Notes under the pieces: model-generated
What the model saw: the letters and a program-made list of their open reading frames with translations, nothing else
The model's database searches: none
Told to the model about the DNA's origin: nothing
DNA from: a virus
Taxonomy: Duplodnaviria; Heunggongvirae; Uroviricota; Caudoviricetes
Reading direction: 5' to 3' (one strand)
IMG/VR virus record: IMGVR_UViG_2695420521_000002
Span: 32,001 to 96,000 of that record
Length of the DNA stretch: 64,000 bases
Translations under genes and position numbers: made by a program
Shown here: piece by piece, positions 28,130 through 30,201 of the stretch
How positions within the stretch are numbered: position 1 is the stretch's first letter
How the letters are laid out: each line of letters opens with the position of its first letter

Positions 28130-28205
28130 TGGTGGCCCCTACCGGACTTGAACCGGTGACCGTGCGATTATGAGTCGCCAGCTCTAACCACTGAGCTAAA
28201 GGGCC
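28130..28205 (-). tRNA. tRNA-Ile (anticodon CAU, ileX-like; Met not excluded)
   Basis: 76-nt cloverleaf GGCCCTTTAGCTCAGTGG...CTCATAA...GGTTCAAGTCC...CCACCA read on - strand. Confidence 0.8.
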
Positions 28206-28232
28206 GGATTACTGCCAATTTTGCTTACGCTT

Positions 28233-29060
28233 TTATTTCACCGGAACAAACGGAACAGCGGTATTACTGGTCATATACTGCGGTAATGTACCGTTCCATT
28301 TGTTGATCGCTTCCAACTCCATAACACCGGGGTTCTGGCGCAGAGCTTCACCACGTAAACGAATGGCATCAGCTTCGGCCTGGGCTTTTGTGCGAATAGC
28401 ATCAGCCTGTCCGGCAGCTTCCGCGCGCAGCATGTTGGCCTCTGCTTCACGTTGTTTGACCTCTTGCTCGCGTTGCAGGGTTTTTTGGTTTGCCGTGACT
28501 TTGGCGTTAATACTGTCAATAACTGTTGGCGGGTATTCTGGCTTACCTACATAAGAGAGGCTCATCACCTGAATGCCGATTGGCGTCATTTCTTCCTGAA
28601 TGTCTTTAAGGGCTGCATCAAGCAATTCGGATTTGCCACCGTCGATAAATTTGTCGGTTGTCATTTTGCTGGCTAACCGGTTCAGAGCATCTGCAACCTT
28701 CTGGCGTAGATCGGTATCAGTAATATCATCTACACCTTTGCGATAGGTCTGAAATACCGTTGTGACTTTTGCTGGATCAACCTTGTAGGCTACACCGATG
28801 TGGTAACCAATGGTTGTTCCGTCGCTCATCTGGAAGCTGAACGGCTCATCGTATGTCTTCATTTGCTTAAAGGTCGGGAAGATATAAACTTCAGTATTCA
28901 AGCCTGTCCAGTAGCGACCAACGCCAACTACTTCACCGATACCTTTATCATCCCCCAGCTTATTTACTTTGATCCCTACGTTACCAGGCTCTACCCGATC
29001 GCATCCGGTCAGACATAAAGAACCCAAAATAATCGCTGCACTAATCAACGTTTTTTTCAT
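28233..29060 (-). CDS. plp: SPFH/band-7 family lipoprotein
   Basis: 275 aa, lipobox LTGC, C-terminal coiled coil; positional match to P1 plp. Confidence 0.65.
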   Translation of the reverse strand: MKKTLISAAIILGSLCLTGCDRVEPGNVGIKVNKLGDDKGIGEVVGVGRYWTGLNTEVYIFPTFKQMKTYDEPFSFQMSDGTTIGYHIGVAYKVDPAKVTTVFQTYRKGVDDITDTDLRQKVADALNRLASKMTTDKFIDGGKSELLDAALKDIQEEMTPIGIQVMSLSYVGKPEYPPTVIDSINAKVTANQKTLQREQEVKQREAEANMLRAEAAGQADAIRTKAQAEADAIRLRGEALRQNPGVMELEAINKWNGTLPQYMTSNTAVPFVPVK

Positions 29061-29277
29061 TAATTAATTTCCTGGTTTTTTCACGAAAAAAGACTACTGC
29101 GGAAGCTGGGTAAATGAGCGCGAGAAGGACTCCCAACAATACAAGTATTGTGCTGTTAGATGAGATCATATTTGGCAAAAGCCAAACATACAGAACCAGT
29201 GACACAATCAAACAGAGGACGGCATAAATATATAACCGCACCCATAGCGTTCGACATTTGTTCGGATTGTTCTGCAT
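29041..29277 (-). CDS. small membrane protein
   Basis: 78-aa ORF with two hydrophobic segments upstream of plp. Confidence 0.35.
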   Translation of the reverse strand: MQNNPNKCRTLWVRLYIYAVLCLIVSLVLYVWLLPNMISSNSTILVLLGVLLALIYPASAVVFFREKTRKLINEKNVD

Positions 29278-29539
29278 CCTCTCACTCCATTATTTAACGA
29301 ATAAAAAAGCTGCGGTGCCGGGTGCCTCCCGGTGTCCTTTGGCTGGTTATCCACCGTGGACGGGGAAACAAGGAGAAATAATGGACAGATATAACCATTT
29401 CCCCGCGTGCGCTTAGCCGCATTCACCGCAATGGTAAGAGCATTTGGCTGACTGAGCGGCGATGACGCCTGTACGCATTTGGTGATCCGGTTCTGCTTCC
29501 GGCATTCGCTTAATTAGCCAAATACTCTTAACGTTGCGA

Positions 29540-29626
29540 TGGCGGAGAGTAATGGAATCGAACCATCATCGCTTGCGCGACGGGACGGCTTTCAAGACCG
29601 CTTGAGCACCATGCTCCCTACTCTCC
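29540..29626 (-). tRNA. putative class-II tRNA (Ser-like, anticodon UGA)
   Basis: 87 nt; 7-bp acceptor GGAGAGT/ACTCTCC, loop CTTGAAA, variable-arm stem-loop TCGC-GCAA-GCGA, T-loop TTCGATT, G73-CCA; D-arm atypical. Confidence 0.5.
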
Positions 29627-30047
29627 AGTGATTGTGGTGGTCGGTGCTGAACTCCGACACAGGGTTGTAGCAAGCCCCGCAAAGCGCGCACTACTGTAGT
29701 TGCGGCACATCAGCCTGTGCATTCACCACAATGTTGAGAACACTGGTTGTCACGCGGCAACGCAACATTTATTCGTAGATTGGGATATGACCCCGTTACG
29801 CCAGTGTTCTCAACGTTGTAGTGCCGGTTACGGTTCCGGCCAGGCCTCTTCCTCAACGGGGTGTTCTCCATACGGACTACCGTTTATTGGTCGTTCCTGC
29901 GGTTTATGTTGTGAAGCCAGATGCTTATCTTCTGGTTGCTTCAAAGAGCTGCACTTCCTCACAACGGTAAGGGGACTTCGTAGGGATTCGAACCCTCTGC
30001 CAAGCTCGGCGATCTCCGACGTCGCAAAATACCCTTACCTGTTGTGC
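29627..30047 (-). ncRNA. highly structured non-coding region between tRNAs
   Basis: 18-bp inverted repeat (29729..29746 / 29801..29818), second long stem enclosing a TTCGAAT T-loop-like hairpin (29960..30045); only shadow ORFs. Confidence 0.3.
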
Positions 30048-30123
30048 TGGTGCCGATTAACGGACTCGAACCGCTGACATCCTGCTTACAAGGCAGGCGC
30101 TCTACCAACTGAGCTAAACCGGC
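30048..30123 (-). tRNA. tRNA-Thr (anticodon UGU)
   Basis: 76-nt cloverleaf GCCGGTTTAGCTCAGTTGG...CTTGTAA...GGTTCGAGTCC...GGCACCA. Confidence 0.85.
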
Positions 30124-30125
30124 AT

Positions 30126-30201
30126 TGGCGATGGCGGATGGATTTGAACCATCGACCCGTTGATTAACAGTCAACCGCTCTAACCGCTGAGCTACACCAT
30201 C
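30126..30201 (-). tRNA. tRNA-Asn (anticodon GUU)
   Basis: 76-nt cloverleaf GATGGTGTAGCTCAGCGG...CTGTTAA...GGTTCAAATCC...CGCCA. Confidence 0.8.

Follow-up and report, generated by a model that had tools for sequence, protein, structure and literature searches.

Positions 28130-30201 of the window (the whole stretch of 64,000 nucleotides (nt), positions 32,001 to 96,000 of IMG/VR virus record IMGVR_UViG_2695420521_000002) contain a tRNA array, and this region makes up leader and body of the ban operon, which C1 represses, given its gene order and the C1 operator at the ban promoter. By its sequence, the source of the window is a P1-like phage (Punavirus). The array shows three ordinary tRNAs, a tRNA-Ser(UGA) of the 8/4 class, and structured RNA modules, among them hairpins of a family that recurs in other phages. 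The best overall explanation, which we hold with slightly better than even confidence, is a leader with four tRNAs and cis-acting RNA modules. All features of the array are on the minus strand, and in the direction of transcription the order is dmt (30875-33139), a bivalent C1 operator, about 650 nt, tRNA-Asn, tRNA-Thr, a 421-nt spacer, the tRNA-Ser gene, about 240 nt of structured RNA, two open reading frames (ORFs), the tRNA with anticodon CAU, and ban.

Hairpin family with a fixed stem and a replaceable tip

Three hairpins of the array, X, I2 and I1 (Table 1), are paralogues, related by the direct repeats D4/D5 and the inverted repeats I1/I2. A scan of viral contigs with the arms of X (ACAACAGGTAAG ... 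CTTWCCGTTGTG, 35-96 nt between them; at least 119 plus at least 84 stretches) gives a family of 140 distinct members in about 200 or more contigs. In the 74 hairpins with a short tip, the helix continues past the fixed arms for exactly seven more base pairs (bp), which are paired in 92-100% of the cases and show several pair types each (for example AGCA/UGCU, AUCA/UGAU, CUGC/GCAG and CCAA/UUGG); beyond this extension pairing drops to 28-39%. The long-tip set, 64 hairpins with arms 66-96 nt apart, shows 72-100% pairing and the drop comes one step later. As read from these alignments, the element is a helix of fixed length, about 19 bp, with one bulged A, a conserved sequence and a hypervariable tip of 29-82 nt beyond the helix. 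Compensatory exchanges show the hairpin stems, and likewise the tRNA helices described below, to be under selection for pairing. Members of the family start 0-2 nt past the CCA ends of tRNAs or the ends of tRNA-like sequences, or just after terminators of the tR' type. Identical flanks are found with different tips, as in the lambda-like contigs L140 and L237, which bear a tip of the P7 type, and the tips thus behave as cassettes.

T-arm look-alikes, consisting of a 4-bp stem and a TTCRAnY loop, are present in 22 of the 140 tips, where shuffling predicts 0.46, and in none on the reverse strand. About eight unrelated tip types are represented among them, and in five or six of these the distance from the look-alike to the following 3' strand of the long helix is 0-5 nt (in one case 11 nt), as for a T-arm that stacks on an acceptor stem. 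This shows that the hairpin elements are features of the sense strand, either derived from tRNAs or selected as tRNA mimics. The tip of L305 contains the 3' half of a class-II tRNA, ending in CCA. Intact tRNAs inside the long-tip hairpins were also considered and rejected, with an ARAGORN tRNA in none of the 64.

In lambda, the hairpin is located 8 nt after the U-run of tR' (L009 1121-1200, approximately 44786-44865 of the lambda genome). The I1 tip (29452-29515) is 97% identical to lambda at approximately 44.87-44.93 kb, between orf-64 and S. The whole lambda segment (L009 1121-1290, approximately 44786-44955) shows the hairpin followed by this 64-nt stretch, and the filler that comes behind tRNA-Ser in rV5-like phages shares 86% identity with the stretch. 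The segment looks like the relic of a tRNA array within the lambda late leader. Other lambdoid contigs show the hairpin after similar terminators and, in two contigs, directly after the small RNA isrJ; in lambdoid contigs it lies between the Q (PF03589) and holin (PF04971) genes.

The hairpin family matches no Rfam family, and a full-text literature search with the arm sequences returned only unrelated papers, older literature being beyond its reach. Integron attC sites were rejected by inspection, since the CACAAC/GTTGTG ends do not fit RYYYAAC/GTTRRRY, and we know of no resemblance to the ERIC or REP-type repeats of enterobacteria.

Modular organization of the spacer

An earlier note on this DNA had described the stretch 29627-30047 as highly structured, with long perfect inverted repeats and a T-loop-like hairpin, and had found no canonical tRNA in it. 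The structure is real, with a fold z-score against shuffled sequences of -3.5 for the whole spacer and of -3.4 to -6.7 for single hairpins, but the spacer is not one unit: exchangeable modules, which many other phages have as well, are strung together in it. The inverted repeats are present and near-perfect only, with arms at 29724-29746 and 29801-29823 (23 nt, 91% complementary) and a second pair at 29966-29978 and 30027-30039. The T-loop-like hairpin was located at 29982-29997 (AGGGTTCGAATCCCT); it is explained by the T-arm look-alike AGGGUUCGAAUCCCU in the tip of X, 3 nt from the helix. The expectation of no canonical tRNA agrees with ARAGORN and Rfam, which call none in 29627-30047. X or the spacer as a fifth tRNA is accordingly rejected (no ARAGORN call and no Rfam tRNA match at E<=10), and X has only a weak match to Rfam mascRNA (22.9 bits, E=0.16). 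The suggestion that the spacer is a degenerate tRNA holds insofar as several modules carry tRNA-derived or tRNA-like pieces, and otherwise does not.

The spacer contains five units: X (30047-29960), H2 (29959-29902), M3 (29901-29824), I2 (29823-29724) and T5 (29723-29627). In 42 related contigs, 20 different distances between tRNA-Thr and tRNA-Ser occur, the shortest being 8 nt and the longest 617 nt, and the units are present or absent independently, with breaks at the unit borders. Some contigs show I2 and T5 alone, others X, H2 and M3 alone or X and H2 alone, and the 617-nt version has an extra X and T5. An alignment of six P1-like phages shows whole blocks replaced or inserted. Pieces of the spacer are 79-94% identical in BUCT554 (epsilon15-like), phiNP, Sashaviruses, SP069 and Klebsiella phage-plasmids. 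These comparisons show that the modules are exchanged as units between phages.

Module X folds with z=-3.4, and its copy in Enterobacter phage BUCT554 is 85% identical. H2, which behaves as a unit among the relatives, has copies 79-94% identical in Sashavirus, SP069 and Klebsiella phage-plasmids, and in pJN2-26 it is located directly before the Ser tRNA. M3 also behaves as a unit; a stretch 87% identical in Citrobacter phage phiNP overlaps it, and its end, GCCGGAACCGUAACCGGCAC (29821-29840), resembles the 3' part of tRNA-Thr, by reading of the sequences only. I2, again with unit behaviour, and I1 show the most stable folds (-49.1 kcal/mol, z=-6.7, and -50 kcal/mol, z=-6.0, respectively). Ro157c2YLVW (L002 3263-3391) has a 161-nt insertion with a 42-codon ORF exactly at the M3/I2 border, equivalent to 29822/29823 of the window, which shows module borders to be sites where small additional genes insert.

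The main rival to the explanation by cis-acting modules is that the spacer is evolutionary debris of a larger array, made of decayed tRNA genes, filler and recombination scars, a harmless passenger whose hairpins persist only through generation and homogenization of palindromes at the DNA level. We consider it rather unlikely, although several observations fit it. The spacer is polymorphic, the tips hold pieces of T-arms and in L305 a whole tRNA 3' half with CCA, M3 ends like tRNA-Thr, and the I1 tip is homologous to the rV5-like filler between tRNA-Ser and the next tRNA-like gene. Some of the observations weigh directly against the modules having a role. Covariation in inverted repeats is also expected for palindromes at the DNA level. 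M3 and T5 fold no better than shuffled sequences (z=-0.5 and -1.5). In Cyrano, Thr and Ser are 8 nt apart and the tRNAs stand without any module. In P1, CRISPR interference shows trnT, plp, upl, tciABC and trnI to be non-essential (PMC10695390), which together with the Ser tRNA loss in P1 and the 8-nt spacer of Cyrano makes the array dispensable in the laboratory. Against the debris explanation stand the fixed stem length with its sharp edge, the compensatory pair types at the seven positions and the conserved bulged A across unrelated phages, and also the strict strand specificity of the T-arm look-alikes and their placement, mostly beside the 3' strand of the stem. The non-coding identity of 80-97% among P1-like, lambdoid, epsilon15-like, rV5-like and SSU5-like phages points in addition to constraint or frequent transfer.

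A second alternative takes the spacer as coding sequence for the proteins Plp and Upl, on the plus strand, and its RNA structure as incidental. In P1, plp and upl are annotated on this strand across the spacer (P1 locus L003 2590-3159), and the window has an ORF of 125 codons at 29700-30077 (+) which equals P1 Plp and stays open in a number of relatives. This ORF starts with TTG, has no Pfam match, runs antisense to tRNA-Thr in its last 30 nt, and its C-terminal part shifts frame or sequence in Ro157c2YLVW, RCS47 and P7; the upl ORF is absent from the window, where the Ser tRNA occupies its place. Gain and loss of modules disregards the reading frame. No sigma-70-like promoter was found on either strand in a scan of 28000-31000, which likewise gives no sign of a promoter internal to the modules. 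A protein-coding spacer, considering Plp, Upl and two further minus-strand ORFs, was rejected for the lack of Pfam matches and of a conserved frame. Plp and Upl are probably spurious ORFs on the wrong strand of a structured RNA region, because of the TTG start, the end antisense to tRNA-Thr, the lack of Pfam matches, the unstable frame and the absence of upl, and we regard the coding alternative as very improbable.

A tRNA-Ser(UGA) of the 8/4 class

The gene downstream of the spacer encodes the RNA GGAGAGUAGGGAGCAUGGUGCUCAAGCGGUCUUGAAAGCCGUCCCGUCGCGCAAGCGAUGAUGGUUCGAUUCCAUUACUCUCCGCCA, whose fold energy has a z-score of -3.5. The earlier note had taken it for a Ser-like tRNA with anticodon UGA, which is confirmed by ARAGORN, the encoded CCA and covariation in the family. 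It had also pointed to an atypical D-arm, and indeed the threshold of the Rfam tRNA model is missed and the best match is the selenocysteine tRNA (tRNA-Sec) model, RF01852, with 43.5 bits against a gathering score of 47 (E=1e-6), which displaces a lower-scoring overlapping match of the general tRNA model. Its option of a degenerate tRNA fails here, where the gene belongs to a conserved and covarying 8/4 class of tRNA-Ser.

The tRNA starts with G1-C72 and shows an 8-bp acceptor stem (GGAGAGUA/UACUCUCC), a 4-bp T stem with a normal UUCGAUU loop, and G73 followed by the encoded CCA. The anticodon loop is CUUGAAA (anticodon UGA, A36-A37-A38) on a stem of 5 bp (G.U, C-G, G-C, G-C and U.G), the would-be sixth pair being A.C, and the variable arm has a 6-bp stem (CGUCGC/GCGAUG) with a GCAA loop. 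Position 8 is A and not U. The D-arm is short and compact, GAGC(A)/(U)GCUC with a loop of 3-5 nt (AUGGU or UGG), and under the tRNA-Sec model it becomes a 6-bp stem containing one mismatch.

Searching viral contigs with the anticodon arm (at least 119 stretches) gave 58 distinct class-II tRNA-Ser(UGA), 53 of them with a compact D-arm; these 53 form alignment A2, on which the counts for the helices and the 8/4 split are based. The acceptor stem is paired in 98.8% of the cells, with covariation at all eight pairs, and the T stem in 97.6%. The D-stem covaries (GAGC/GCUC versus GGGC/GCCC) but aligns poorly across subfamilies, with 72% of the cells paired. Over the whole structure pairing reaches 91.3%; shifting the 3' partners by 1-3 columns lowers it to 38-51%. 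The 8/4 and 7/5 arrangements were compared by pairing the nucleotide after the four T-stem pairs either with position 8 or with the nucleotide before the T stem. In the 8/4 arrangement, pair 8:66 is AU in 27 sequences, GC in 10, GU in seven, CG and UA in two each and UG in one, with 15 double changes; its four failures are all U8-type members, three of which read as canonical 7/5 tRNAs. The competing pair 49:65 is GU in 34, GC in seven and AU and UA in one each, with 10 unpaired and a single double change. Since pair 8:66 covaries and the 7/5 pair is mostly G.U with 10 unpaired, the family has, by comparison of its sequences, a 12-bp acceptor branch split 8/4. In this class the identity elements for seryl-tRNA synthetase are a long variable arm and a discriminator G73 or U73; of the 49 members pre-selected for pairing 8:66, 45 have G73 and four have U73. 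Among relatives the tRNA is near constant while the flanking spacer is 8-617 nt, and its variable arm shows compensatory swaps; both argue for purifying selection on a working tRNA-Ser.

The gene is a member of an already described class and is already annotated in D6. Mukai et al. (2017) found the 8/4 class among near-threshold Rfam tRNA-Sec matches, in bacteriophage tRNA clusters with serine anticodons, the phage examples being marine and alpha-proteobacterial phage contigs, and 8/4 and 9/3 tRNAs of the class insert serine in E. coli (Nucleic Acids Res 45:2776; PMC5389517). The window tRNA-Ser shares with that group the 12-bp branch of 8+4, the long variable arm and G73. It differs in the anticodon stem, which is longer than its 5 bp in the group, and the compact D-arm appears tRNA-Sec-like but matches only roughly, with a stem of 4-5 bp and a loop of 3-5 nt in place of a 6-bp stem and a tetraloop. 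A canonical 7/5 class-II tRNA-Ser was rejected, since the window gene has A8 and not U8, a D-loop of 3-5 nt in place of an ordinary G18G19 loop, and a score below threshold with the general model. tRNA-Sec (RF01852) was rejected as well, on the anticodon UGA and not UCA, the branch of 12 and not 13 bp (8/5 in bacteria), and the score of 43.5 bits, below 47.

Carriers of the Ser tRNA are P7, D6, the unclassified phage Cyrano, the rV5-like Vequintavirinae (83% identity to the tRNA-Ser region, including 80 nt downstream) and the Klebsiella phage-plasmid pJN2-26. D6 (NC_050154, H7U15_gt001) has the same gene in the same position, downstream of Asn-Thr and a spacer of about 465 nt, and it differs in four of the 87 nt (one in the D-arm, one in the anticodon stem and two in the variable arm). 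Its record notes an 'apparent UGA Serine anticodon but AA not called by tRNAscan-SE' and contains no 8/4 explanation. In D6 and P7, unlike the window, the tail of the spacer, at the position of T5, is a different and longer sequence. Just downstream of their 8/4 tRNA-Ser, the rV5-like phages (L007/L008 2377-2475, minus strand) show a 99-nt tRNA-like gene, to which ARAGORN assigns a four-base 'anticodon', atcc, and the Rfam tRNA model 35.5 bits; its GenBank labels vary between tRNA-OTHER, tRNA-Lys and tRNA-TERM.

Three observations count against a working 8/4 tRNA-Ser in the window. Its own copy allows both the A8-U pair (8/4) and the G.U pair (7/5), so that its 8/4 assignment rests on family homology; it closes the anticodon stem with U.G instead of U-A, as do three of the 53 sequences; and P1, RCS47 and Ro157c2YLVW are without the gene, unrelated sequence being swapped there for window 29445-29632. 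The gene could also be a non-functional pseudogene or a decoy unused in translation, with the sub-threshold score of the general tRNA model, the amino acid left uncalled by tRNAscan-SE in D6, the absence of U8 and a loss in P1 without obvious cost as points in favour. We find this improbable, because compensatory changes keep all helices in 53 distinct sequences, the T loop, the anticodon loop, G73 and CCA are kept, five or more unrelated groups of phages have conserved the gene, and published 8/4 and 9/3 tRNAs insert serine in E. coli (PMC5389517). A working tRNA-Ser, by analogy, should be charged by the host seryl-tRNA synthetase through the long variable arm and G73, and would read UCA and related codons.

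T5 and the STnc100-like domain

Module T5 starts with UUGUGGUG-AAU-GCACAGGCUGAUGUGC, ends with GUCGGAGUUCAGCACCGAC-CACCACAA and shares UUGUG with the 3' arm of I2. Its fold is a four-hairpin junction with z=-1.5. It has 25 distinct relatives, which keep the ends around a variable middle of 25-120 nt. The two terminal hairpins show compensatory changes, and the closing stem covaries only in part, with G.U and two A.C combinations. As the fold is in addition not better than shuffled sequences, the modelled structure of T5 is provisional. A hammerhead in some T5-type modules (CUGAUG...GAAA) was rejected, since stem II is missing and the covariation of the flanks is that of a simple hairpin.

The domain at 29300-29435 shows the same build and the same end motifs as T5. 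A simple terminator scan does not call its end. The Rfam STnc100 model (RF02076) matches it at 29311-29430 with 38.7 bits and E=3e-6, below the gathering score of 47, and the equivalents in P7 and D6 score 43.0 and 39.6 bits; E-values of 3e-6 to 1e-5 suggest a real but distant relationship. The match covers the central part of the model only, positions 31-147 of 206, including the closing stem and the CACCGGGAGGCACCCGGCACC end. The genomic neighbourhood is also the same, with TerB-like genes, Q and holin, although the window domain, unlike STnc100, sits inside the leader of a tRNA operon. Each hairpin has at its 3' end a GUUGUG that doubles as 5' strand in the closing stem of the domain after it, so that a hairpin and the next domain exclude each other over 5-6 nt. 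This may be a switch or a by-product of alternating inverted repeats.

Some modules, namely T5, the STnc100-like domain and possibly the hairpin tips, could instead be genes for trans-acting small RNAs, excised from the tRNA precursor and base-pairing with host or phage mRNAs, the hypervariable tips and loops giving specificity. The sub-threshold STnc100 matches (up to the 43.0 bits of P7) speak for it, since STnc100 and its relative PasD are prophage-encoded small RNAs near Q, TerB and holin genes (bioRxiv 10.64898/2026.05.13.724894), and so do the shared neighbourhood of the modules (P1 tciA is a TerB homologue), the T5 features in common with the STnc100-like domain (5' UGGUGAAU, a 3' hairpin with CACCA and a multi-hairpin build) and the position of the hairpin directly after isrJ in two contigs. 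We judge this unlikely, since every match is below the Rfam gathering score, the STnc100 model finds no T5-type module at E<=0.01, the terminator-like end is present in the last domain only, and T5 and the end domain do not fold significantly better than shuffled sequences (z=-1.5 and -1.8).

Operon context and the ordinary tRNAs

Over most of its length the region 28130-30201 is 98-99% identical to RCS47 and several P1 isolates, and this identity extends in parts to P1, P7, D6 and SJ46. The C1 operator consists of a perfect 17-mer, ATTGCTCTAATAAATTT, at 30868-30884 (-) and a second copy with two mismatches at 30857-30873 (+), which overlaps it, and this layout is the same as in the annotated P1 Obanab (P1 record NC_005856). 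Window 30202-30950, with the approximately 650 nt between the operator and tRNA-Asn, is 94.6% identical to P1. The operon layout is common to the window and to annotated P1 and P7, and, as in NC_005856, the tRNAs come in the order Asn-Thr ... Ile2, stand under the C1 operator and precede ban.

Table 1. Features of the ban operon leader and body in the window.
Feature	Positions	Strand	Basis or remark
Bivalent C1 operator at the ban operon promoter, upstream of the entire array	30857..30884	-	Consensus match; Oban/Op72 equivalent
Hairpin of the same general type, upstream of tRNA-Asn	30385..30492	-	T-loop-like UGGUUCGAUUAACCA in tip
tRNA-Asn(GUU)	30126..30201	-	ARAGORN; Rfam tRNA 72.3 bits; 75/76 identical to P1 trnA
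tRNA-Thr(UGU)	30048..30123	-	ARAGORN; Rfam tRNA 72.9 bits; 76/76 identical to P1 trnT
Module X, hairpin 1 nt past the CCA end of tRNA-Thr	29960..30047	-	Stem CACAAC(A)GGUAAGGG.../...CCCUUACCGUUGUG
Module H2, small hairpin domain	29902..29959	-	Closed by GUUGUGA/UCACAAC; GUUGUG common to the 3' arm of X
Module M3, weakly structured	29824..29901	-	Fold z=-0.5; ends in GCCGGAACCGUAACCGGCAC (29821-29840)
Module I2, hairpin with 23-bp stem, paralogue of X and I1	29724..29823	-	Tip carries CGGGGUCAUAUCCCA
Module T5, cloverleaf-like domain	29627..29736	-	Closed by AUUGUGGUG/CACCACAAU; starts AAUGCACAGGCUGAUGUGC, ends GUCGGAGUUCAGCACCGAC
tRNA-Ser(UGA), 8/4 type, 87 nt	29540..29626	-	ARAGORN; Rfam tRNA-Sec 43.5 bits; family covariation
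Module I1, hairpin starting at the CCA end of tRNA-Ser	29424..29541	-	Inverted repeat I1, 35-nt arms
STnc100-like domain, before the first ORF	29300..29435	-	Closed by UUGCGGUG/CACCGCAG, then U run; terminator-like
Two ORFs: 78-aa membrane-like protein and 275-aa SPFH/Band-7 lipoprotein	28233..29277	-	Pfam Band_7 1e-30
tRNA-Ile2, anticodon CAU	28130..28205	-	ARAGORN (labels Met); 76/76 identical to P1 trnI

ARAGORN finds four tRNA genes on the minus strand, with exactly the coordinates that the earlier note had given, and its assignment of Asn, Thr and Ile(CAU) to the three tRNAs of P1 was right (Table 1). The Rfam tRNA model gives these three 64.7-72.9 bits, and the P1 record annotates the CAU gene, trnI, as an ileX-like tRNA-Ile2. 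TCA makes up 20% of the Ser codons in 41 long ORFs of the phage; the shares of ACA among Thr, ATA among Ile and AAT among Asn codons are 26%, 20% and 54%. TCA, ACA and ATA are used far less in E. coli, which is the usual rationale for phage tRNAs. In several relatives (L015, L024, L036, L104, L107 and L122) Arg(UCU) takes the place of Asn as first tRNA of the array, and many (L040 and others) have an additional tRNA, Tyr(GUA), between that first one and Thr; the tRNA content of the locus thus varies like a cassette array.

The long hairpin upstream of tRNA-Asn folds with -45.5 kcal/mol (z=-3.6), and P1-like relatives show CACAACAGGTAAGGG at the equivalent place. Window 30657-30758 is the counterpart of the 'dicF-like region' annotated in P1 between the ban promoter and tRNA-Asn, with no Rfam DicF match above threshold. 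It contains, at 30675-30697 (-), a strong GC hairpin with a T8 run on the transcribed strand, similar to a terminator, which RNA polymerase has to pass to reach the tRNAs and ban. The SPFH and membrane-like ORFs occupy the place of tciABC in P1, P7 and D6, where tciA is immediately downstream, and RCS47 and Ro157c2YLVW are arranged like the window. The SPFH gene has about 86% DNA identity to genes in Stx-converting phages, P88 and phiP27.

Across the window, the C1 operator consensus (up to three mismatches) has 15 matches, against 0.36 expected, among them 128-144, 13223-13239, 34390-34406, 49697-49713 and 51359-51375, and they outline a P1-type immunity regulon. Rfam places two separate C4 antisense RNA matches within 2975-3185 and 51092-51298 (76.7 and 69.6 bits); one of the two is beside an isrK match (62.4 bits) and the other beside a c4 a1/b1 target element (55.5 bits). 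In P1 only one c4 locus is known. A further locus of the C4/isrK type within these 64 kb could be the sign of an additional module for immunity or anti-repression.

Proposed function and significance

The four-tRNA leader with cis-acting modules would work as follows. Leftward transcription from the operator-controlled promoter near 30860-30890 would give a long untranslated ban leader, in which the four tRNAs, Asn, Thr(UGU), Ile2(CAU) and Ser(UGA), would supply codons heavily used by the phage. Two kinds of module would recur in it: (a) the covarying hairpin with a stem of about 19 bp and a replaceable tip, which often appears to imitate, or to derive from, a tRNA T-arm stacked on the stem, and (b) the multi-hairpin STnc100-like domain. 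The modules would act in cis on the polycistronic RNA and provide handles right at the tRNA ends, of an RNase III type through the long duplex and of an RNase P type through the T-arm and helix. The tRNAs would then be released cleanly, while the leader and the downstream mRNA for the membrane and SPFH genes and ban would be kept folded and protected. The conserved stems could double as recombination homology for the cassette-like shuffling of modules and tRNAs between phages. The alternatives of a processing signal or a stable RNA, which the earlier note offered for the spacer, would remain the best reading of it in this form.

Known systems offer analogies. Duplexes of about two turns occur beside stable RNAs in polycistronic transcripts, as in the RNase III stalks of rRNA operons and T7 mRNAs, and the P1/P7 C4 RNA precursor and mascRNA are tRNA-like substrates of RNase P, for which a T-arm on a helix is the minimal handle; the likeness of the modules to both is by analogy only. 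HDV-like (hepatitis delta virus-like) theta ribozymes, like the window modules, are structured RNAs adjoining phage tRNA genes, with a proposed role in tRNA processing (Kienbeck et al., 2024, PMC10879173). Their fold is a nested double pseudoknot, whereas the window element is a continuous 19-bp helix, and no Rfam ribozyme model, HDV-type or other, matches 27900-30700 at E<=10, the HDV-like/theta, hammerhead and twister models being without a match in 13 related loci at E<=0.01 as well. The Rfam models AgvB, AsxR and Esr41 have no match at the window region or the related loci.

A more specific proposal, which we make tentatively and would not put forward as probable, is that the hairpin CACAAC(A)GGUAAG-7 bp-tip-7 bp-CUUWCCGUUGUG and the STnc100-like domain form an undescribed and widespread module set, acting as a tRNA-mimicking processing or stability switch with the tips as cassettes, and spread among temperate enterobacterial phages: in lambda after tR', in P1 between tRNAs, and in epsilon15-like, SSU5-like and rV5-like phages. 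This module set, including its copy in the lambda late leader, may be the new part of the region.

With the tRNA-Ser, a non-canonical serine tRNA of the 8/4 kind is located in coliphages and phage-plasmids that are well studied, namely P7, D6, P1-like plasmids, rV5-like phages and SSU5-like Klebsiella elements, where genetics is feasible. Standard tRNA finders under-call it, so that inventories of phage tRNAs are incomplete. The conserved hairpin is located in the lambda late leader and in many Q-to-holin regions, a hot spot for the insertion of toxin and accessory genes. If the modules control the processing or stability of transcripts, or guide the exchange of cassettes, they would bear on the expression of late genes and Shiga toxin and on the trading of tRNAs between phages.

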